Origin: a virus
Virus record (IMG/VR): IMGVR_UViG_3300044826_000112
Length of the DNA: 64,000 bases
Direction: 5' to 3' (one strand)
Each line of letters begins with the position of its first letter. The first letter of the stretch is position 1. The notes below the pieces were generated by a model. It saw only the letters and a list, made by a program, of their open reading frames with translations. It made no database searches and was not told the origin of the DNA. Below are positions 12,682 through 24,049 of the stretch, in pieces. Made by a program: the position numbers and the translations under genes.

Positions 12682-13305
12682 ATGGACTGGACTGAACTAG
12701 ACATCGACCAAGCTGCAGAAGAAGTTTGGAAAAGAAACCACACACGCACAAAACTTGATACAATCAAGGCGATGATGCGTGGAGAAAAGGAGACACCACA
12801 TGCCCTTACAGGTTATAGACGAGATGCTGATTTCAAACAGCAACAGATCGCTCTCGGACAGGTTGCTGAACGACTGGCTGCTGCCCGCCTTGACAAGCTT
12901 GACCCTACTGCACGTCATTTGCTCGCTCCCGATAACAACAACAGCCGTGATATCTACGTTGCTCGGGGTGGGAATCTGGCACCTGATCAAGGCTATCAGG
13001 TTAAAGTGGGTGACCCGAACGAACACATCTACTATACGCTACGTGACAGACTCCGATCAGGAAATAACGATTCAATCATCCTCGACGGGAGTCTCTATCA
13101 CTCAGGGTCGCTACAAGGGTTCACTCCATATAAAGGTGAAACCTTAAAGCAGCTGCTGGATGAGACTGGTACAGAGGTGATCGGGATGCCTGGGCTGACC
13201 TCGTTGGCCAAAACTATCCGGGATCGAGAGGCTTCTAACAGTACTCTGGAACGTGGAATGCTAAAGATCGTTGAGATTGCAAAAAAACTTCGATATGGCT
13301 ATTGA
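12682..13305 (+). CDS. Hypothetical protein
   Basis: AGGAG RBS. Confidence 0.65.
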   Translation: MDWTELDIDQAAEEVWKRNHTRTKLDTIKAMMRGEKETPHALTGYRRDADFKQQQIALGQVAERLAAARLDKLDPTARHLLAPDNNNSRDIYVARGGNLAPDQGYQVKVGDPNEHIYYTLRDRLRSGNNDSIILDGSLYHSGSLQGFTPYKGETLKQLLDETGTEVIGMPGLTSLAKTIRDREASNSTLERGMLKIVEIAKKLRYGY

Positions 13306-13329
13306 CACAACGATCCTATGAGCTATTAT
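13302..13329 (+). promoter_or_regulatory. sigma70-like promoter
   Basis: TTGACA-N16-TATTAT. Confidence 0.55.
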
Positions 13330-13353
13330 GAGCATACTTCCTCAACAACCTAA

Positions 13354-13581
13354 ATGGTGAATGACATGAACGCTCGTAAAGCTCGCTTTGTAAAACCTTC
13401 TGGCTCTACCTACGAAGTACGTCCTGTAATGCCCAAGGGCAAAACCGGCCGTTACGGTAAAGCTCCGGAGAGCATCCGCCTCCAGGCCGCATCCTCTGAA
13501 GATGCAATCCGCCGGGCCGTAGTTTCTGGGTTCATCCCCAGCAACACCGTGATGCAGTACTACGAAGCTGCCCTGATTTAA
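13354..13581 (+). CDS. Hypothetical early protein (probable start at the second Met)
   Basis: Follows a sigma70 promoter and precedes a terminator. Confidence 0.6.
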   Translation: MVNDMNARKARFVKPSGSTYEVRPVMPKGKTGRYGKAPESIRLQAASSEDAIRRAVVSGFIPSNTVMQYYEAALI

Positions 13582-13660
13582 GATTTGCCCGTTTTGATGA
13601 CATAGCTCCCCAGCTTCCCCCGGTGGTCCTCCTCAGCCCCGGGGGCTTTTTCTTTGTGCG

Positions 13661-13990
13661 ATCGACACATGTGTCTGGTCACTTTGAGTCCTCACCACAC
13701 CGCATATCGTTGATTCCATAGGCTTTTTAAGGCCGATGTGTCGGTTGTGTCGATTGTTCCACCCCAAAATACATACTCCTTTCCTTAGAACACCCAATGT
13801 GTCTTATTCTATATATCTCTCTATCTCTCGTAAGGAAAATAAAAATAAATAAATAAGAGGGGCGGTTAGGGATTTTCATGTACGGGGTGTTTTTGGGCCC
13901 TGGAACACCGACACATCGCACACATCCGACCGGTTTTCATTGAGATACTCAAGAACTCCTAATCGACACATCGAAAAGTGCCTGGAACAC
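13661..13990. repeat. Origin-like element, copy 1 (core 13734-13925)
   Basis: Near-identical to 39016-39208; CGACACAT/ATGTGTCG motifs in inverted orientation flank an AT-rich core. Confidence 0.85.
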
Positions 13991-14056
13991 ATACGTGCAC
14001 ATTTAGGCAGATCCTTGGTATAATAACTATGTAGCGATCTTACTAAGGGAGGACGC

Positions 14057-15418
14057 ATGGCAGTCGTCAAAAAGCTCAAGCCAATTGATATGACTCTTGA
14101 GCAACTATATGCTCATGAGAAATTCACACCTACTATCCGTAAAGCAATTCTCCTCAAGGAGGACTTCAGCAAGATCCAAGTGGACTATTGCGACAAGGTC
14201 TGTACTGTACCCAGTCGTATGAAGTGCCCGGACAACGTGTATCTGCAAACGTTCGATGAGCCGGTAGATATCCTGATTCTCCAAGAGCAAGTCCCTCTTG
14301 ATGAGAAGTGGAAAACCGGTCAGCAGGTCAACCGTATTCACCGCAAGATCATGGGCTACATGATGAACCAGGTGAATGACACCAACTTGTCTGTGGCATA
14401 CCTAGATCTCGTTAAGTGTCCGAACAAGTTCAACCCTGTGAAGGGTAAGCACAAGAATGCTACTGCTACGCAGATGGCGTCCTGTGCACCTTATCTTTAC
14501 GAGCAAATCCGGCAGGCTCGTCCAAAGGTAATCGTCAGTACCTCATCTGTGGCAACGAAGGTGCTGGGCTTGAAGAAGTCCAACTACAACAACCGTGGAG
14601 AGTTCCATCTGACAGACATCCCAGGCCTGGACTACCAGGTACCTGTGGTTCTGACTCTACACGCTTCTGTTTTAGTCATGATCCGGCAGAACGCCTCAGG
14701 CAAGATGTACGGTCCTGACTTCTTCTCAGTCATCCGTCGCGACTTCCAGAAGGCATGCGATCTGGCCAACCAGAAGTATGCAGCTGGTGATGTCCGCCTA
14801 GCTATTCAGCAGCTGAAAGCCAGGGGTGCAATCCAGTACTGCAAGAACATGGATGACGTTAAGAAGTACTATAACGAAATCATGGCCTTGCCTGAGAACG
14901 CAGTGTTCTCCTGGGATACGGAAACGACATCTCTCGACCCATGGTCAGACGATGCTCGACTCCTCTGCTCGCAGTTCGGATGGCGCCGGCCAGATGGCTC
15001 TCTCATTGGGGTATCCTTCCCGCTTTGGCACAAGGACAACCCGATGAATCCAGATATCATCTGGGACTATGTAGTGGACATCTTGATGCGGCCTAACCCG
15101 AAGGTTGGCCACAACGTCAAGTTTGATATCGTGTTCACTGAGGTGACCACAGGTATCCGTCCGGTCAACGTCTGCTTCGATACTCTGCTATGTGCTCACA
15201 GCATCAACAGTGGTATTCAGCAGAACTATAGCCTGAAGACTGTCATCTGGGATTGGACTCCGGAGACTGGCCTGGGCGGCTATGAAGACCTTCTGGATGA
15301 AAGTCTGACCGAGGAGCAGGTTGCCCTCATCAAGGCGGAGCTCAAGAAGGAACGTGACGCCAAGAAGGCGTTGGGATTAACCGACTCCGACGACGAAGAA
15401 GAGGAGTCAGAAGAATGA
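14057..15418 (+). CDS. DNA polymerase A, N-terminal part: UDG-like domain + ExoI/ExoII of the 3'-5' exonuclease
   Basis: LVKCP...CAPYLYEQI...RPKVIV...VLTLH (family-4 UDG-like); WDTET (ExoI); GHNVKFD (ExoII); DTLL..H...SLK; ends in an acidic tail. Confidence 0.85.
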   Translation: MAVVKKLKPIDMTLEQLYAHEKFTPTIRKAILLKEDFSKIQVDYCDKVCTVPSRMKCPDNVYLQTFDEPVDILILQEQVPLDEKWKTGQQVNRIHRKIMGYMMNQVNDTNLSVAYLDLVKCPNKFNPVKGKHKNATATQMASCAPYLYEQIRQARPKVIVSTSSVATKVLGLKKSNYNNRGEFHLTDIPGLDYQVPVVLTLHASVLVMIRQNASGKMYGPDFFSVIRRDFQKACDLANQKYAAGDVRLAIQQLKARGAIQYCKNMDDVKKYYNEIMALPENAVFSWDTETTSLDPWSDDARLLCSQFGWRRPDGSLIGVSFPLWHKDNPMNPDIIWDYVVDILMRPNPKVGHNVKFDIVFTEVTTGIRPVNVCFDTLLCAHSINSGIQQNYSLKTVIWDWTPETGLGGYEDLLDESLTEEQVALIKAELKKERDAKKALGLTDSDDEEEESEE

Positions 15419-15780
15419 GGATGTTCTTGATGGTTTTTCTACTGTTCGCCCTGTACTGCGGTGTCCTGTACCTGATCTGGTACAAGTTCAAGCAGCCAAG
15501 CTACGTGGGTATGTTGGATAGGCTCTATAAGGAGTTCCCGAACTGTGAGTTCGTGATCCTTTATGGGGCCAAGTCGAAAAAGCCTTACGGCTTTACATTC
15601 GAGCCCAAACTGAGTATGCTCCTTATCGTTGACATGGAATCTCTCAATCGCTTCCACAGGCCTCCAGAGCCTATGATAGCTTCTCCATTGGGGACTGATG
15701 AGATTCATGAGTTCGAGCTGATCGACTACATAAAGGAGAAACTCAATGTCCCTCAATCGCGACATCCAAATTCTGGTTGA
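15415..15780 (+). CDS. Hypothetical membrane-anchored protein
   Basis: N-terminal hydrophobic helix; GAGGAG RBS. Confidence 0.6.
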   Translation: MRMFLMVFLLFALYCGVLYLIWYKFKQPSYVGMLDRLYKEFPNCEFVILYGAKSKKPYGFTFEPKLSMLLIVDMESLNRFHRPPEPMIASPLGTDEIHEFELIDYIKEKLNVPQSRHPNSG

Positions 15781-16042
15781 CGATATCGGTGCCGTACTGG
15801 ACCAAGCCGGCGTACCTACTACTGACCAGCAAGGCCGCGGTATGAACACCTTCGCTCGTGTGAACCTGGTTCTGCAGTTCAATGCGAATCTGCAACAAGG
15901 TCTGAACGATGCCAACGCAGGTCTCGGCCTGCTGGGTGAGATCCTCGAGAAGCACGGTCTGAACCGTGAAGAAGAGCTGGCAATCCTCTTGGAAGACAAG
16001 AAGGCTGCCGAAGCTGCCAAGGCAGAAAAACCCGCTGAGTAA
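15746..16042 (+). CDS. Hypothetical protein
   Basis: AAGGAG RBS; followed by a terminator. Confidence 0.7.
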   Translation: MSLNRDIQILVDDIGAVLDQAGVPTTDQQGRGMNTFARVNLVLQFNANLQQGLNDANAGLGLLGEILEKHGLNREEELAILLEDKKAAEAAKAEKPAE

Positions 16043-16093
16043 TCAGCAAACCACCATAAGGCCCTTCGGGGCCTTTTCTTTTGGAGAGTAAAA

Positions 16094-16384
16094 ATGGAAA
16101 ACGTTGCAATGCCCCGTACTGCAGAGCCTATCGCTCCGGCTCTGGATAAGATCAAAACCCATCCCAACAACTGCCTGTTGGTAATCGACTTCGAAGCTTC
16201 CGGCCAAGGCACCATCGGACGCATCGTTAAGAGTGACGTAGGTGAGTATGCCGTCGGCACTAAAGTAGCGTTTCGTCGCAGCCCCTCTCAAGCCCTTCTG
16301 GGATTCGTAGAGGGTCAGCAAGAACCGCGTGTACTTCGCATCATCGTACACGCCCGTCAAATCATGGCAGTTATCGAGGAGTAA
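16094..16384 (+). CDS. GroES-like protein (divergent)
   Basis: GRIVK..., YAVGTKVAF, IIVHARQIMAVIEE parallel GroES GEVVAV/VKVGDKVLF/ILRESDILAVIE. Confidence 0.45.
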   Translation: MENVAMPRTAEPIAPALDKIKTHPNNCLLVIDFEASGQGTIGRIVKSDVGEYAVGTKVAFRRSPSQALLGFVEGQQEPRVLRIIVHARQIMAVIEE

Positions 16385-16386
16385 TC

Positions 16387-16881
16387 ATGCAAGGTCGTGA
16401 CTATCTCTTGGGCGTACAGCCCATCTCTCAAGTAATCGGTGAGATTATTCATCCAACCGATCCCCTGTTCTCTCAGATCCCCGGCATGTATGCCGTCAAG
16501 GTTCTGTCCCTGCCGATTCTCCCAAGCATGTACGAGGATATCTCTCGTAGTGCTGCGAGTGTTCTCTCGGTAGGTGACATCATCCTGGTCAGCGGATTCA
16601 CTACTGTGTACACCGATGAGCAGCTGCGTTCTGACGCAGCAGAGAACTCCTGGAACAGCGTTATAACTAGCGAGCTTCGCTACACGCAACGTCTGATAGA
16701 GGAGACTCGAGACGGTGGGGCTGAAGTTGGACATCCCGTGGCTGTAGATGATTCTCCAGTGCTTAACGGAGATCTGGCTCAAGCTACCATCCGTCGTTCT
16801 ATCGAAGACGATGTAACCCTGTACGCATCTATTAACCCGAGCAATATCTTCGGGAAGGTGTTGCAAGGTTGTGCTCGTTGA
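16387..16881 (+). CDS. Second GroES-like protein with insertions (tentative)
   Basis: AVKVLSL, LSVGDIILV, SINPSNIFGKV. Confidence 0.35.
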   Translation: MQGRDYLLGVQPISQVIGEIIHPTDPLFSQIPGMYAVKVLSLPILPSMYEDISRSAASVLSVGDIILVSGFTTVYTDEQLRSDAAENSWNSVITSELRYTQRLIEETRDGGAEVGHPVAVDDSPVLNGDLAQATIRRSIEDDVTLYASINPSNIFGKVLQGCAR

Positions 16882-16948
16882 ACTATATTATCCCAAGTGC
16901 GGAGTTGACCGCCTAACTACAACTTACCCTCATCTAGGAGTTGACCTT

Positions 16949-18199
16949 ATGAGTAAGAAAGCCACCCTTGCCGTGATCTTTGGTCGCTGGCAGCCCCTCC
17001 ACAACGGCCACCTGACCCTGTTTCAGGAAGCCGTTAAAAGTGCCAAGCATGTTCTCGTGTTCGTTGGCTCTTCCAATAAACCCCGTACCCCACAGAACCC
17101 GTTCTCAGCTGAAGAACGTATCGACATGATCTACAAGGTCTTCGAGAGCGGTCTCGAAGAGCAGCTTGAAGGCATGTACGACGTCGTCCCTTTGCCTGAC
17201 TCTTACATGGATTCCGTGTGGAGTACTGACGTTCGCCGCCTGGTTAACTCCTTTGCGTGTGACGTCGTTGCTGATTACGGTGATGAGATCCTCGATTCGG
17301 ATATCCTCGTCGTAGGTCACGAGAAGGATGACTCCAGCTACTATCTGAACATCTTCCCTGAGTGGAACGTGAAGAAAGTGCCGAACTTCAATGGCTTGAA
17401 CGCCACTGATATTCGTAACGAGCTGTTCAATCGTAAGCGTCCGGTAGACCCAGGATTCACTAACCGCATCGCCAAGTACTTGGCAGTGTGGTGCGGTAAG
17501 TCTGAGACTGAAGTCCAGATGTTCATGGACACTCGTCTGCGGAAGGACCTGCCTGCCCAAGTCGATCCTAAGGCCTCTGAGGAGCTCTCTAAGCAACTCC
17601 GACCGCTGGACCTAACCTACCTATCCATCAACGTGCCGGAAGGCGTACGCGAGTTCCTACGCGGTTACATGACTACAGACTCATACTTGGACATGATCGA
17701 GGAGACCTTCTCTTATGCATGCAACAAGATGACCTGGGGTCTGGCTCCGTACGCTCCTACCTTCGTGACTGTCGATGCGGTAGTGACCATGAAGGGTCAC
17801 GTACTGTTGATCCGTCGCAAGCAGTCTCCTGGCCGCGGCCTGTGGGCTCTGCCTGGCGGGTTCATCGATCAGGAAAATCCCCTGGTCGACAACGTGATTC
17901 GCGAGCTTCGTGAGGAGACTCGCATCTCCATCCCGAACAACAAGCTCAAGGACTGCATCACCAAGATGATTACTGTGGATGATCCGTACCGCAGTAAGCG
18001 TGGCCGCACTATCACCCATGCTGCTCACATCGATCTGGACAAACTCCCTGATAGTGACATTCAACAGCTCCCGACCGTACGCGGTTGTGACGATGCCGAG
18101 AAGGCACGCTGGTTCACCTTCAGTGAAGTTCTGGATTTCGGCTCTACCCTGTTCGAAGACCATGCAGAAATCATCAAACGTCTCGTATTCAGCAAGTAA
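16949..18199 (+). CDS. nadM: Bifunctional NMN adenylyltransferase / Nudix ADP-ribose pyrophosphatase
   Basis: GRWQPLHNGH, NPFSAEER, GHEKDDSSYYL, NATDIR; Nudix WALPGGF...RELREET; DPYRS.RGRTITHA; FEDH. Confidence 0.93.
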   Translation: MSKKATLAVIFGRWQPLHNGHLTLFQEAVKSAKHVLVFVGSSNKPRTPQNPFSAEERIDMIYKVFESGLEEQLEGMYDVVPLPDSYMDSVWSTDVRRLVNSFACDVVADYGDEILDSDILVVGHEKDDSSYYLNIFPEWNVKKVPNFNGLNATDIRNELFNRKRPVDPGFTNRIAKYLAVWCGKSETEVQMFMDTRLRKDLPAQVDPKASEELSKQLRPLDLTYLSINVPEGVREFLRGYMTTDSYLDMIEETFSYACNKMTWGLAPYAPTFVTVDAVVTMKGHVLLIRRKQSPGRGLWALPGGFIDQENPLVDNVIRELREETRISIPNNKLKDCITKMITVDDPYRSKRGRTITHAAHIDLDKLPDSDIQQLPTVRGCDDAEKARWFTFSEVLDFGSTLFEDHAEIIKRLVFSK

Positions 18200-18209
18200 G
18201 GAAACTGCT

Positions 18210-19736
18210 ATGAACACTATGCAAAACTCTCTCGTTAACCTGTACCGCTCCCACATCCAGGCCGGCCACGTGCGTGTCGAAATGAACGGCATCGCCCGGG
18301 AATTCGAACGCATGTTCAGTCCGAACCGTAACGTTCTGACCAATGCCGACGGCTACAAGTACAGCCAGTACCTGCAATACCCTGAAGGTACCACCTACGT
18401 TGCTTCCTACATCGAAGCTCGTGTCGGTGCCAAGCACAGTCGCATCCTCTGGTGTGGTCTGCAGGCTTTCCTGAAGGAAACTCTGACCGTCCGTATCACC
18501 AAGAAGATGGTCGACAAGATGGCCAAGATCGCCAAGTCTGCAGGTGCTCCGTTCAACTACGATGGCTTCATGCGTATCGTGAACGAGTTCGACGGCCGTT
18601 GGCCGCTGCGTATCCGTGCTCTGCCGGAAGGTGCAGTAGTCAAGCCTGGCACCGTACTGGCTCTGGTGGAGAATACCCACCCGGACTTCTTCTGGTGCAC
18701 CTCCTTCATCGAGACTATGCTGCTGCGTGCGGCCTGGTACATGACTACCGTAGCTACTGTCTCCAAAGACATCTACGACCTGTGCCTGGGTACTCTGGTC
18801 GAGTTCACTGACCTGAAGGGCGAAGCTCTGAAGATGGTTCTGAAGTTCATGCTGAACGACTTCGGTGCACGCGGTGCTTCCTGCCACGAAGCTGCGGTAC
18901 TGGGCGGCATGGGTCACCTGATGACTGGTTTCCGTGGTTCTGACACTACTGAAGCCTCTGAGGGTGCCGAGCTGTACTACAACCACAACATCGAGGAAGA
19001 TGCTCCGACCAAGACCGTACCGGCCTCTGAGCACTCCACCGCTGCGTCCGAAGGTGAAAAGGGTGAACATATCTTCAACTCCCGCATGATCAAGGCGTTC
19101 GGGGATGGCTTCATCTTCGCCTCTGTATGTGACAGCTTCGACCACTTCAAGAACGTGGCTGAGAACTGGCTTGGCAAGAATGCAGTAGAAGTCATGAACA
19201 TGAATGCCCGTCTGGTTATCCGTCCGGACTCTGGTGATCCTGTAGACATGGCTCTGGCTACTGTGGAGCTGCTGGATGAGAAGGTGGGTTCCACCCCGAA
19301 CTCCAAAGGCCTGAAGGTCCTGCATCCGAAGTTCCGTGTGATCTACGGTGACGGTATCGACTACAGCACTATCCTGGCCATCTTCACCGCTCTCATCGAG
19401 AACGGTTACTCCCCGGAGAACATCTGCTTCGGTATGGGTGGGGCTCTGCTTCAGAAGTGCGACCGTGACTGGGAACGCTTCGCTATGAAGGCCTGTGAGC
19501 TGGAAGTCATGGGCGTCAAGCGTCACGTCGGTAAGAAGCCGAAGACTGATCCTTCCAAGACCTCCAAGTTCGGCATCTACACGCCGCACCTGGTAGACGC
19601 GGAGATTGTCAACGTGGCTGCAGATGGTCCGGTTCCGGAGGGTGCCGTGGAAGTCTTCCCGGTAGTATTCGAGAACGGCTTCCTTCTGAAGGACTGGAGC
19701 CTGGACGAGATCTCCTCGTTCTCTGCCATGCAGTAA
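18210..19736 (+). CDS. nadV: Nicotinamide phosphoribosyltransferase (NadV/Nampt)
   Basis: DGYKYSQYLQYP, DFGARG, PASEHS, IRPDSGDP, YGDGID, FGMGGALLQ..RD...AMK. Confidence 0.93.
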   Translation: MNTMQNSLVNLYRSHIQAGHVRVEMNGIAREFERMFSPNRNVLTNADGYKYSQYLQYPEGTTYVASYIEARVGAKHSRILWCGLQAFLKETLTVRITKKMVDKMAKIAKSAGAPFNYDGFMRIVNEFDGRWPLRIRALPEGAVVKPGTVLALVENTHPDFFWCTSFIETMLLRAAWYMTTVATVSKDIYDLCLGTLVEFTDLKGEALKMVLKFMLNDFGARGASCHEAAVLGGMGHLMTGFRGSDTTEASEGAELYYNHNIEEDAPTKTVPASEHSTAASEGEKGEHIFNSRMIKAFGDGFIFASVCDSFDHFKNVAENWLGKNAVEVMNMNARLVIRPDSGDPVDMALATVELLDEKVGSTPNSKGLKVLHPKFRVIYGDGIDYSTILAIFTALIENGYSPENICFGMGGALLQKCDRDWERFAMKACELEVMGVKRHVGKKPKTDPSKTSKFGIYTPHLVDAEIVNVAADGPVPEGAVEVFPVVFENGFLLKDWSLDEISSFSAMQ

Positions 19737-19822
19737 ACCTCAAAGGGCCCTACGGGGCCCTTTATTTTTACCCACCAACTATGCCTCATTTCTCGGTATA
19801 AGTACTCTGAGGAGGGCCACAT

Positions 19823-20650
19823 ATGACAGCCTTAGATATCGTAATGGGATTGGATCCCGAGTTCCACATACGTGATGTAGTGGACAAACTGAAAATAGTG
19901 AGGACTTTCCAGGGCAAACTGAATGGTTACAACCTGGACCTCATGATCCCCATCGAGGACCGTGACGGAGAAATCAGTCACATGTCAGCTGCTCAGATCT
20001 CTGGGCGTACTCGCCAGGTGATCAATGAGGAGTTAACCGCAAGAGAGAACTACCTGCTCCAGGAGACGGGCATTCTTACCTCTCTTCGCACCTATCTCTC
20101 AGTCTCTCCAGAGCTCGATCGTCACCACGTAGATGATCTGTTCGAAGAGCTGCGAGAGTATGCCACTCCGGCATTGGCAATAGCAGACGAAATGACTGGT
20201 CCGATGATAGTCGGTCTCATCTTCTCACGGCTGAAGATGCGTCACTTCATTGAGAATGGTCAGTTCGAAGACCCTTACTTCCTGACGCAGATCGACTTCC
20301 CGATGTACGAACGTCGGCAGTTGGTCCATGCGGTACTGCGAAGTGGCGGTATGGGTTTTGTAGTTGAGAGCTACAAGAACCGCTTGATGAAGTACGATTT
20401 GGACTCCCTATCTGTGATAGATCGGCGTGTTAATCACTATCTCACACGGATGTTTTCTGAGATAATGGAAATCCGTAAAGGTGGTGAATCCTATCTCGAG
20501 ATGCGTGACATCAACATCTCTCGGGATGACGAGAGTCGCATCCTGCGACTGCTCGAGCAGATGGAAGCCGAGACTCCCTTGCATGGCGATGAAGTCATAT
20601 TCGGGCTGATCTCTGATTGCTATCTGCAGGGGTTCAACCTGTTCAAATAG
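19823..20650 (+). CDS. Hypothetical protein
   Basis: Own GGTATAAG promoter and GAGGAGG RBS. Confidence 0.7.
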   Translation: MTALDIVMGLDPEFHIRDVVDKLKIVRTFQGKLNGYNLDLMIPIEDRDGEISHMSAAQISGRTRQVINEELTARENYLLQETGILTSLRTYLSVSPELDRHHVDDLFEELREYATPALAIADEMTGPMIVGLIFSRLKMRHFIENGQFEDPYFLTQIDFPMYERRQLVHAVLRSGGMGFVVESYKNRLMKYDLDSLSVIDRRVNHYLTRMFSEIMEIRKGGESYLEMRDINISRDDESRILRLLEQMEAETPLHGDEVIFGLISDCYLQGFNLFK

Positions 20651-20680
20651 GGCCCTACGGGGCCCTCAACAGGAGGAAAT

Positions 20681-22243
20681 GTGAGAAAACATAAAGGGTT
20701 CACGTATGAGTGGTACGACTACGACGCTCTGATGACGTATGCGGCTATCGATAACTACGTGACAAGTGCCATTCTGGCGGCCATGTGGCCAACGCTCAAT
20801 GAGCGACGAGACTACACTTTCTTTAAGCGTGGTCAGGCTCAAGTCGTGAAGACTCCGTCTATTCGTAATGAACAGTTGGAGGTCAAAAAGCTGGCGTTAG
20901 ACTTCGTGTGCGATATGGAAGTGGCAGGTATGGCTTACGACATCCCTGCTAACCGACGTATGCATCAAGCCATGTTGGAAGACTTGGCGATTACTGAGGA
21001 TCAGATCTTCACCGCCATCGGTAAGCGGATTGATCTGAACTCCGGTGCTGCTCTGGGTGATTTTCTTTACCGTGAACGCGGTTTTGACGTCCCTCTGCAG
21101 ACGAAGAGTGGTGGCGATTCAACATCTGGTGATGCTCTGAAGGCTCTGCACAAGATCCACGAGCATGACTGGCTGAAGGACATCATCAAGCGTAACGACG
21201 TGCACGCTATGCATGGCAACTTCATCAAGACCTATGTAGAGGACTGGGTGAAGAGCGACGGTCGGATCCATCCTCAGTACAACCTGTTCGGCACCAGTTC
21301 GCACCGTATCAGCTCCAGTGAGCCGAACCTGCTGAACCTGCCGCGTGGCTATTACGGCTACAACATCCGGGAACTCTACATCACTGTCCCGCCGATGGCC
21401 TTCCTGACCTTCGACTTCTCCTCGTGTGAAGTGAAGATCTTGGCGGCCCTCTGTAAGGATGAGGCAATGATGGATGCCTGTGCGAAGGGTTGGGACTTCC
21501 ACTCCTTCACCGCATCGATGATTGCAGGCGTACCGTACGAGGACTTCGTTAAGATTGCTAAGGATGAAGACCATCCGGAGCACAAGAAGTACAAGGGAAT
21601 CCGTCAGGATGCCAAGGCGACCACCTTCGGTCTGCTGTATGGCTCCACTGTAAACGGTATCGCCATGAACCTTGGCAAGTCCCTGGAAGAGACCCAGAAG
21701 ATCGTGGATACCTACTTCCGCTTGTTCCCGAAGGTAAAAGACTTCATCGAAGACTGCCACAAGATGGCTCTGGCCAACCAGTTCGTCTTCTCGCCATTCG
21801 GTCAGAGAAAGATGGAGTACGGTGCTCAGGACGTCTTCCGTGGCACTGCCGTGTACAACGCTGCTCTGCGGAACAGCCAGAACGTATCCATCCAAGGTCC
21901 GGCTTCTACTTTAGGTCTGATTGTGTTCGCCAAGCTGAACGAAGAGCTCAAGAAGATTGGTGGCCGGGCAATCTGTACGGTATACGACTCGGTGGAAATC
22001 GAAGTCCCGATGAATCGCATGGCAGAAGCCATCGAGCTCGGCTTCTACATGATGGATGACTGGCCTGTCGAGAACTTCGACTGGTTGGACTTCAAGATCG
22101 GTGCGGATGCTGAAATCGGTTGGGATTGGGGTAATGTACACGGCGTCAAACGTGGCATCACCCAAGAGAAGTGTGAAGAAATCCTCTCTGCAGCCAATGA
22201 AGAGAAGTATGTGACCTCCCGTCTGGTACTGGCGGCGGCGTAA
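20681..22243 (+). CDS. polA: DNA polymerase A, C-terminal part: ExoIII + polymerase domain
   Basis: YAAID (ExoIII); DGRIHP, RISSSEPNL.NLPR; motif A DFSSCEVKILA; motif B R..AKATTFGLLYG; motif C VYDS; own AGGAGG RBS with GTG start. Confidence 0.92.
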   Translation: MRKHKGFTYEWYDYDALMTYAAIDNYVTSAILAAMWPTLNERRDYTFFKRGQAQVVKTPSIRNEQLEVKKLALDFVCDMEVAGMAYDIPANRRMHQAMLEDLAITEDQIFTAIGKRIDLNSGAALGDFLYRERGFDVPLQTKSGGDSTSGDALKALHKIHEHDWLKDIIKRNDVHAMHGNFIKTYVEDWVKSDGRIHPQYNLFGTSSHRISSSEPNLLNLPRGYYGYNIRELYITVPPMAFLTFDFSSCEVKILAALCKDEAMMDACAKGWDFHSFTASMIAGVPYEDFVKIAKDEDHPEHKKYKGIRQDAKATTFGLLYGSTVNGIAMNLGKSLEETQKIVDTYFRLFPKVKDFIEDCHKMALANQFVFSPFGQRKMEYGAQDVFRGTAVYNAALRNSQNVSIQGPASTLGLIVFAKLNEELKKIGGRAICTVYDSVEIEVPMNRMAEAIELGFYMMDDWPVENFDWLDFKIGADAEIGWDWGNVHGVKRGITQEKCEEILSAANEEKYVTSRLVLAAA

Positions 22244-22373
22244 AATATAGATGTAAGTCTCCGCACCTGTTGTCCCGACAGGTCACTTCTCTTCACGTAA
22301 GATCCACAAGGCCCCGCAAGGGGCCTTTTACTTTGGCCTAAAATATAAGCGATGACTTATTCGGAGGATAACT

Positions 22374-22544
22374 ATGAAGAAGATGATCATCGCTATGATG
22401 CTGTCTGCATCCGTGGTCCTGATGGGCTGTGGTGCTTCCGAGCCGACTGTTCTTGACCAGAAATGCGTCGAGATCCAGAAGGCCCGTGGTACTGCTGAAT
22501 CCCAGATCAAGTCCATGTGCACCCGTCCTGCTTCCGCACAGTAA
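22374..22544 (+). CDS. Small lipoprotein (56 aa, not in track)
   Basis: GGAGG RBS; MKKMIIAMMLSASVVLMG-C lipobox. Confidence 0.65.
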   Translation: MKKMIIAMMLSASVVLMGCGASEPTVLDQKCVEIQKARGTAESQIKSMCTRPASAQ

Positions 22545-22597
22545 GCAGGTCTACCCTCAAGGGCTCCTTCGGGAGCCCTTTTCTTTTGGAGAAACAA

Positions 22598-24049
22598 ATG
22601 GAAATTGTACAAGTCCGTGCAGGTCATGCTACTAACAGCTCTTCCTGTCACTCAATCATCTATCTTCCTGGTGGCGCTAGCGATGATGAAGCGGGGTGCG
22701 ATCAGGATTTCGGATGGGAATGGTTCACTCTCGGCAGTCGTGAAGCCAAAGCCCGCTATGCAGCCCAGTCCTTTAGGAACTTGCTGAGCGATGAGATCTT
22801 GGAGAAGCACCTCGGTGTAGCTCCTGATCCTGAAGGTTACATCGATCATGAATCTGCAGGCCTGCTCGGCTGGGTTCGTGATGAAGAGGATCTGATCAAG
22901 TTCGTCCGTCTGTACCTGGATAATGAGAGCATTGTGATCACCGGCGGTAACGATAACGATGATAGTGGTCCGGTGCCTGTTGGTCAGAGCGTTCCGAGCT
23001 ACAGTTCTCTTAACAAGTGGCGGGATGGTGATAATTACTTGATTATCTACGATCCGGTGACTGGCAACAAAACCCACTTCGCCAAGGGTGACTATCAGAT
23101 CGGGGATGTGCCGGCAGATTTCCCCGAACTTGTTGACCTTAAGATCTCCGACTACTGCGATCTCGGTTGCTCGTTCTGCTATCAGAACAGTACCCGCCGC
23201 GGCAAGCATGGTGATCTACAGGTGATCAAAGATGTCATCTCCAAGCTGGGTCATCTCGGTACCTTTGAGATTGCCATTGGCGGCGGAGAGCCTCTGCAGT
23301 ATCCGCATCTGGAAGAAGTTATCCACCATGCCAATGCATGTGGGATAACCGCCAACTTCACCACCAAAGACTACAAAGCTCTGGCCAAACGTAGCGATCT
23401 GATCCACTACATAGGCGGCGTAGCTGTATCGGTCGCTACCCCAGAGGAAGCCAGAGAAGCTATTAAGTGGTTGGCCGATCTGACCACGGAAGAACGGTCA
23501 CGAGTCAGCTTCCAAGTACCGGTAGGGGCACAGACTTACGAGCAATTCGTTGAACTCATGGCTACCATCGCCTGCTACTCTGTCAACCGGGTGACTCTGC
23601 TGGGTTACAAGCAAGTGGGTCGTGGCACTGCCAGCAAGTACCACAGCTTTGAGGATAAGCTTGGGGATATCTTCTTCAAGCAAGAACCTTATAGCTGGGA
23701 TGAGACTCGCTTCTACACCGCGGCCGTGTACCCAAGGCTGAGCGTTGGGATTGATACTCAGTTGGCCGTGAAGGCTCCTGGGTTCATCGCCAAGCTGCCC
23801 AGCCAGGTAGTAAACAAGGTCGTCATGTACAAGGAAGGCCTGCACAGCTGCTACATCGATGCCGTTCGCCAAGAGATTGCACCGAGCAGCTACTGTGACA
23901 AAGAACTCTATCAAACCCTCGTAATCGATCAAATCGGAGATATTTTCAATGAAATCTCTTCTGCAGCTTGTGAAGACGCCCTTCGTAACAACGCTAGCGG
24001 TAGCACTGTCGTACCCAGTAGTGATTCAGATAGCGGCGAAGCTGTGTAA
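22598..24049 (+). CDS. Radical SAM protein
   Basis: CDLGCSFC (CxxxCxxC), GGGEPL; N-terminal RAGHATNSSSCHS domain. Confidence 0.85.
   Translation: MEIVQVRAGHATNSSSCHSIIYLPGGASDDEAGCDQDFGWEWFTLGSREAKARYAAQSFRNLLSDEILEKHLGVAPDPEGYIDHESAGLLGWVRDEEDLIKFVRLYLDNESIVITGGNDNDDSGPVPVGQSVPSYSSLNKWRDGDNYLIIYDPVTGNKTHFAKGDYQIGDVPADFPELVDLKISDYCDLGCSFCYQNSTRRGKHGDLQVIKDVISKLGHLGTFEIAIGGGEPLQYPHLEEVIHHANACGITANFTTKDYKALAKRSDLIHYIGGVAVSVATPEEAREAIKWLADLTTEERSRVSFQVPVGAQTYEQFVELMATIACYSVNRVTLLGYKQVGRGTASKYHSFEDKLGDIFFKQEPYSWDETRFYTAAVYPRLSVGIDTQLAVKAPGFIAKLPSQVVNKVVMYKEGLHSCYIDAVRQEIAPSSYCDKELYQTLVIDQIGDIFNEISSAACEDALRNNASGSTVVPSSDSDSGEAV

Follow-up and report, generated by a model that had tools for sequence, protein, structure and literature searches.

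The window analysed in this study is a stretch of 64,000 nucleotides from the virus record IMGVR_UViG_3300044826_000112 of the IMG/VR database. Its source is an uncultured phage of about 175 kb that occurs in freshwater and wastewater metagenomes; 23 tRNA genes lie in the window, and a megablast search of the region against phages returned no match. At positions 14057 to 22243, two genes on the same strand encode a family A DNA polymerase (PolA) that carries an N-terminal domain resembling uracil DNA glycosylase (UDG) and that is divided inside its 3'-5' exonuclease domain. The genes, termed here the N half and the C half, and their features are the following (positions in the window; "clade" denotes the group of related phage sequences described below):

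14057..15418, + strand: N-terminal subunit of the split polymerase, 453 amino acids, with the UDG-like domain and the first two-thirds of the 3'-5' exonuclease domain
14189..14692, + strand: family-4 UDG-like domain, recognised by Pfam, PDB and the clade alignment, with four conserved cysteines and the motif-B histidine (LHAS)
14912..14926, + strand: ExoI, WDTET, residues 286-290, with D287 and E289 invariant in the clade
15107..15127, + strand: ExoII, GHNVKFD, residues 351-357, with D357 invariant in the clade
15296..15415, + strand: acidic tail of 40 residues with a net charge of about -11, which follows the conserved GGYEDLL and closes with DSDDEEEESEE
20671..20676, + strand: AGGAGG ribosome-binding site, 4 nt ahead of the GTG start of the C half
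20681..22243, + strand: C-terminal subunit, 520 amino acids, with the ExoIII helix and the thumb, palm and fingers
20738..20752, + strand: ExoIII, YAAID, residues 20-24 of the C half, with Y20 and D24 invariant in 32 C halves
21602..21643, + strand: motif B (O-helix), RQDAKATTFGLLYG, residues 308-321 of the C half

In the N half, Pfam recognised a UDG domain (PF03167) at residues 103-212 with 27.5 bits, above the cut-off of 24.3, and the domain DNA_pol_A_exo1 (PF01612) at residues 264-395. The latter match covers only positions 6-122 of the 173 in the profile, so the end carrying ExoIII is absent from this protein. When a clade orthologue of the N half was compared with the Klenow fragment by phmmer, ExoI and ExoII were aligned and the alignment extended to Klenow residue ~467. 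The exonuclease site of Klenow is composed of D355 and E357 (ExoI), D424 (ExoII) and Y497 and D501 (ExoIII). The third motif is found near the start of the C half, whose match to DNA_pol_A (PF00476, E 2.6e-59) spans profile positions 5-380 of 381 and whose PDB matches are Taq, Bst and Klenow polymerases, with E values to 1e-42. Motif A (DFSSCEVK, residues 245-252), motif B and motif C (VYDSVE, residues 434-439, window 21980-21997), which together mark a family A polymerase domain, are all present in the C half, and D245, R308, K312, F316, Y320 and D436 are invariant or near-invariant in the clade alignment. Motif C reads VYDSVE in place of the usual HDE, with D436, S437 and E439 invariant in the clade. 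The three exonuclease motifs are all present, but they are distributed over two proteins. An initial annotation of the sequence had proposed a polymerase split between ExoII and ExoIII into two genes, and the reading frames and motifs were found as it had placed them. The AGGAGG site that it assigned to the C half was likewise found, with the start codon corrected to GTG, read as M.

The same break is shared by a large clade. Salmonella phage Arash and Vibrio phages D69, D181 and D148 are the nearest relatives in culture, and the N half shares 47% identity with Arash gp168 and 43% with D69 gp0209. A common break point was found in the window, Arash, D69 and 20 IMG/VR loci: N halves end in GGYE(D/G)LL followed by an acidic tail, and C halves start with M, a short basic head and then TYE.Y...L..YA.ID. 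The best 120 relatives of the C half (45-97% identity) are all 440-600 amino acids long, match PF00476 only and lie on contigs of up to 172 kb. The N-half representatives retrieved at E < 1e-40 mostly have about 390-500 amino acids, the exceptions including the fused proteins P0144 and P0147 and shorter fragments. Among 28 IMG/VR loci, every one with enough flanking sequence has exactly one N half upstream on the same strand, and three complete IMG/VR genomes hold exactly one copy each. The ExoI and ExoII carboxylates D287, E289 and D357 are invariant across 26 N halves, as Y20 and D24 are across the C halves.

In Arash, the N half gp168 was taken by its annotators for a stand-alone "uracil DNA glycosylase" and was found by mass spectrometry; the Arash paper does not discuss a split polymerase. 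Thirteen genes separate gp168 from gp154. The latter is labelled "DNA polymerase nu" and gp152 "DNA polymerase theta"; they are the two exons flanking a group I intron (Rfam, 58.9 bits) that contains the 61-residue gp153 (locus L001, OQ632216.1 87636-98605). In D69, a single 181-residue gene separates the halves, and an intron occupies the same site of the polymerase.

Unsplit orthologues colinear with both halves bear out the division. In P0147 (858 amino acids), residues 7-375 match residues 12-413 of the N half and residues 381-856 match residues 6-487 of the C half, with only about five residues separating GGYEDEL from GKTYEDF. P0144 is fused over the same site and ends at motif B, the site of the intron. 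Locus L027 encodes a single open reading frame (ORF) of 932 amino acids in which the linker past GGYED is acidic (...KAKDLEEEGEEEED...), so the acidic tail of the split forms is an inherited linker. The AlphaFold2 model of L027, for which the alignment was composed mostly of split halves, has a predicted local distance difference test score (pLDDT) of 93.3 and a predicted template modelling score (pTM) of 0.90. By Foldseek it matches Klenow (1d8y) with a template modelling score (TM-score) of 0.87 normalised to the target. The model has one sizeable stretch of low confidence, at about residues 405-430 (421-426 below 50), which is the acidic linker at the break; its sole other dip is a block of about ten residues near residue 55. 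The ExoIII helix follows the linker at residues 439-459. As the low-confidence stretch coincides with the linker, the cut lies in a disordered surface loop, whose counterpart in Klenow we take to be the loop before ...YAAEDAD.

The initial annotation had seen no intron or intein at either junction, and this is borne out by our searches. An Rfam scan of window positions 13000-24000 by E value (E <= 1) revealed no intron at either junction, nor did Rfam find one at the break in 14 related loci. This absence is meaningful because the same searches recover group I introns at other places in relatives' polymerase genes, as listed here:

L001 2757-3028 (- strand), L002 2749-3267 (- strand) and L026 10923-11188: group I introns in the polymerase domain at the motif-B codon
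L028 10962-11220 and 11568-11866: two group I introns, the first at the motif-B codon and the second further on

These introns lend some plausibility to a joining of the halves at the RNA or protein level, whether through an intron spliced in trans or in cis or through a split intein, since they place splicing machinery at work in the lineage. We nevertheless regard such joining as very improbable. Apart from the Rfam result, the interval between the halves holds seven ORFs, two of which are genes for salvage of nicotinamide adenine dinucleotide (NAD+) that are conserved in Arash. No intein domain was found in the Pfam search of the window proteins, and an intein cannot fit at the junction, because the C half has only 7 residues ahead of the conserved TYE and the tail of the N half is low-complexity acidic sequence. 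Contigs of RNA libraries contained no joint of 15418 to 20681, a weak negative given that contigs cannot show rare forms, that these libraries may contain DNA and that uncovered bins are uninformative.

The window is derived from a metagenome and has no isolate, so an assembly artefact or a decaying pseudogene has also to be weighed. Contigs from independent wastewater studies span both junctions (X4 at 15279-17013 and 19448-21592, X7 at 14388-15939 and 19380-20808), which answers the concern about misassembly. Cultured Arash has the same architecture, as do complete IMG/VR genomes bearing terminal repeats, and both ORFs are intact and conserved; an artefact or decay is therefore hardly credible. 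The split is a true gene fission and not an intron, an intein or a misassembly.

The intron site of the relatives corresponds to codon F316 in motif B (window 21626-21628), where the window has no intron. Close relatives in the wastewater runs X4 and X7 have loose ends exactly at 21627/21628, which suggests that some strains carry the motif-B intron and others lack it.

The distance between the halves varies across the loci from -11 nt to about 9 kb, in the following arrangements:

Overlap of 8-11 nt: L011, L015, L016, L022, L024 and L030
Gap of 0.3-3.6 kb: several loci
Gap of 7-9 kb with NAD+ salvage genes between the halves: the Arash-like subclade, L005-L007, L018 and L025
L012 2656-3294, L013 9211-9849 and L019 8623-9234: HNH homing-endonuclease-like genes at the junction, matching PHROG "HNH endonuclease" families (phrog_374, E 1e-67)

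Each HNH gene overlaps both the stop of one half and the other half's start. In the sister locus L011 the halves overlap and no HNH gene is present; the endonuclease may thus have arrived after the split. A single indel would interconvert the fused and overlapping states. Programmed frameshifting, which might fuse the products of overlapping genes in relatives, was considered and set aside as irrelevant to the window with its 5.3 kb between the genes.

In the window, the stop of the N half and the start of the C half are separated by 5,262 bp, which hold seven ORFs, in agreement with the seven genes and about 5.3 kb given by the initial annotation; two of them are recognisable, as NAD+ salvage genes. 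The features of the interval are the following:

15415-15780, 15746-16042, 16094-16384 and 16387-16881, + strand: four small ORFs without a family match
16949..18199 (likely start), + strand: fusion of nicotinamide mononucleotide adenylyltransferase and Nudix domains (NAD+ salvage; Pfam PF01467 and PF00293), 44% identical to Arash gp160
18210..19736, + strand: nicotinamide phosphoribosyltransferase (Pfam PF18127 and PF04095), 49% identical to Arash gp157
19742..19763, + strand: GC-rich terminator-like hairpin after the phosphoribosyltransferase gene, with GGGCCC-TACG-GGGCCC at 19745-19760 and a T-run following
19823..20650, + strand: ORF of 275 amino acids without a family match

The same NAD+ salvage pair is among the genes between gp168 and gp154 of Arash. 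In L026 both salvage genes lie downstream of the polymerase (13502-15757), and in L027 there is a weaker downstream match to the phosphoribosyltransferase only (17278-18681); the cassette seems to change its place in the replication module. Pfam and PHROGs gave no match for the five unnamed intervening ORFs of the window, D69 gp0208 or Arash gp155 and gp156, and Arash gp167 has a marginal match to the unannotated family phrog_11135 (E 0.0019). Compared with one another by BLASTP, the unnamed genes between the halves in the window, in Arash and in D69 showed no similarity. The variable spacing, the endonuclease genes at the junction in some relatives and the position of the NAD+ pair, either between or after the halves, indicate that the 5.3-kb separation probably reflects secondary gene insertion into a hotspot made by the fission rather than a regulatory design. 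The initial annotation had suggested that separate expression could tune proofreading and uracil sensing, an idea that finds no support in the relatives, among which there are overlaps of 8-11 nt, fused genes and distances of 0.3-9 kb. The same GGGCCCTACGGGGCCC stem as in the hairpin is repeated at 20650-20665, just upstream of the ribosome-binding site of the C half, with no T-run following. Given such terminator-like hairpins between the halves, their separate transcription is possible but unproven; a scan for sigma-70 promoters showed no enrichment over shuffled sequences.

Two further features were recorded. Directly downstream of the C half (22517-24049), a radical SAM protein is encoded whose N-terminal extension is long. 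On the contig of a related phage (L014), a permuted transfer-messenger RNA gene (RF04321, 109.6 bits) lies at 20774-21122 beside a tRNA cluster.

The UDG-like domain precedes the exonuclease domain, and family-4 UDG homology in this N-terminal position is what is seen in UDG-PolA. Its PDB matches are to family-4 UDG/UdgX (E 7e-4), under the name "Phage SPO1 DNA polymerase-related protein". Residues C45, C49, C121 and C143 (window 14189-14491) are invariant or nearly so across the clade and would fit the [4Fe-4S] cluster, as expected of family-4 UDGs. The motif-B histidine is retained (LHAS in the window, LHP in the clade consensus). Motif A (GE.PG) cannot be recognised: the match to Pfam begins at profile position 40, and the clade consensus keeps only a glutamine there. 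Because motif A is not conserved, the domain may serve in DNA binding rather than in base excision.

Taken together, we estimate at roughly 85% the probability that the window encodes a naturally split UDG-PolA of an Arash-like large phage, probably reassembling as a Klenow-like enzyme with a composite proofreading site. An ancestral single gene would have been cut by fission in the disordered acidic surface loop between ExoII and ExoIII, and the two products would be translated separately. The N subunit, with the UDG-like domain, ExoI and ExoII, would contribute D287, E289 and D357 to the exonuclease site, and the C subunit, with the ExoIII helix and the polymerase domain, would contribute Y20 and D24; these five correspond to the Klenow residues named above. 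The halves most likely rejoin non-covalently; such a heterodimer is suggested by the invariant catalytic residues, by how compactly the fused orthologue folds and by the overlap of the genes in many relatives. The junction would then have become an intergenic landing site, taken by an HNH homing-endonuclease-like gene in some relatives and, in the Arash-like sub-lineage that includes the window, filled by 7-13 genes with the NAD+ salvage pair among them. An active site assembled in trans, as the initial annotation had proposed, is therefore the best reading of residues that are invariant on both sides of the break across a deep clade.

The two proteins might instead act independently, the C half as a proofreading-deficient polymerase and the N half as a UDG-like or DNA-binding accessory protein or a crippled exonuclease, with no stable heterodimer between them. 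The 5.3 kb and the terminator-like hairpins between the genes would suit such independence, as would the treatment of Arash gp168 as a stand-alone glycosylase detected by mass spectrometry. However, the invariance of the ExoIII tyrosine and aspartate in the 32 C halves and of the ExoI and ExoII carboxylates in the 26 N halves would be hard to understand if the site were never assembled. Furthermore, fused orthologues fold into one compact Klenow-like unit, the overlap of 8-11 nt in many relatives suits translational coupling, and PolAs need the exonuclease domain for stability (PMC10201439). We thus hold independence of the halves to be quite unlikely.

A further alternative accepts reassembly and supposes that the split is used and not merely tolerated. 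The lone polymerase subunit would lack exonuclease activity, and the UDG-like/Exo subunit, transcribed separately, would dock through the pair of acidic tail and basic head and so switch proofreading on. If this were true, the phage would possess a stoichiometric dial on fidelity, and the lone C subunit might carry out synthesis that is, for instance, early, fast or tolerant of modified bases. The charges of tail and head do follow the pattern noticed in the initial annotation, which saw in them a possible aid to assembly: in 20 paired loci, the tails of the N halves are net negative in 20 of 20 and the heads of the C halves net positive in 17 of 20. The acidic tail is not an adaptation to the split, the acidic linker being inherited and present, as an internal disordered stretch, in the fused L027. 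The correlation between tail and head charge (rho -0.38, p 0.10, uncorrected for relatedness) adds no support beyond the sign pattern. We consider this use of the split unlikely.

Several points weigh against the favoured reading. From the sequences we infer the binding of the two products to each other and with it the composite active site. The AlphaFold2 model is of a fused orthologue and not of the window's own two chains. The 40-residue tail of the window's sub-lineage exceeds that of most relatives in length and could have a function of its own. In a quick tree, the fused forms are nested among the split ones, with forks left open and 4.3 substitutions per site on the outgroup branch; it is too weakly rooted to set an ancestral split against repeated splits.

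Among the closest parallels to the proposed split UDG-PolA are the LUZ24-like phages (Bruynoghevirus). LUZ24 gp25, a "DNA polymerase exonuclease subunit", and gp34/gp36, "DNA polymerase part II", are separate genes on the same strand with eight unrelated genes (~2.3 kb) between the exonuclease and polymerase genes. The polymerase part is interrupted again beside an endonuclease gene, and the layout as a whole is like that of Arash and the window. In contrast, gp25 (169 amino acids) has all three Exo motifs (YDLEGD, GHNILDYD and YCLQD), so that LUZ24 is cut at the boundary of exonuclease and polymerase, whereas in the window the cut lies inside the exonuclease domain and ExoIII goes with the polymerase. 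LUZ24 also lacks a UDG-like domain.

In T4-like phages, genes in pieces arise through free-standing homing endonucleases, as for nrdA and mobE of Aeh1 and the split gp43. The HNH endonuclease-like genes exactly between the halves in L012, L013 and L019 resemble this situation, unlike the junction of the window, which has no endonuclease gene. Unsplit UDG-PolAs of the SPO1 and N4 types (891 amino acids in Spounavirinae) share the domain order UDG-like, 3'-5' exonuclease, polymerase and are homologous to both halves. They are, however, single polypeptides and only about 25% identical, and the window clade forms a separate deep branch.

Fission of PolA was reported for the S-SBP1-like T7-type cyanophages, in which a 1-nt frameshift is credited with producing overlapping exonuclease and polymerase genes, the new ends of their products being predicted to face the solvent (Czernecki et al. 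2023, PMC10201439). That case likewise involves neither intron nor intein, and several relatives of the window have a similar overlap of 8-11 nt. It differs in that the separation is described as one of whole exonuclease and polymerase domains, in adjacent genes, and in that the enzymes belong to the T7-like subfamily (PMC10201439). The authors termed it the first PolA split and described UDG-PolA only as unsplit. For the split family B polymerase of PhiKZ, a stable 1:1 polymerase/exonuclease complex of DNAP-N and DNAP-C was shown experimentally (PMC13648687), and intradomain splits can hence work. As in the window, the PhiKZ split is intradomain, and its two genes lie at distant places in the genome; in contrast, the enzyme is of family B and the break falls in a palm-domain insertion and not in the exonuclease active site. 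Split PolAs are thus already known, and new here is a cut within the exonuclease domain of the UDG-PolA type instead of at the exonuclease/polymerase boundary.

With this finding, the natural splits of family A polymerases are no longer confined to domain boundaries but include one that runs through the proofreading active site. It also corrects the annotation of Arash, where gp168, gp154 and gp152 are pieces of one polymerase. Furthermore, the break identifies a place where a Klenow-like fold permits splitting, and this site could serve the engineering of split polymerases. A large and mostly uncultured phage clade retains the split through deep divergence and forms a natural series, from fused genes through overlapping ones and junctions with an endonuclease to gaps of up to 9 kb with metabolic genes. 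This series allows the study of how a gene fission becomes fixed and how the new intergenic site is filled.

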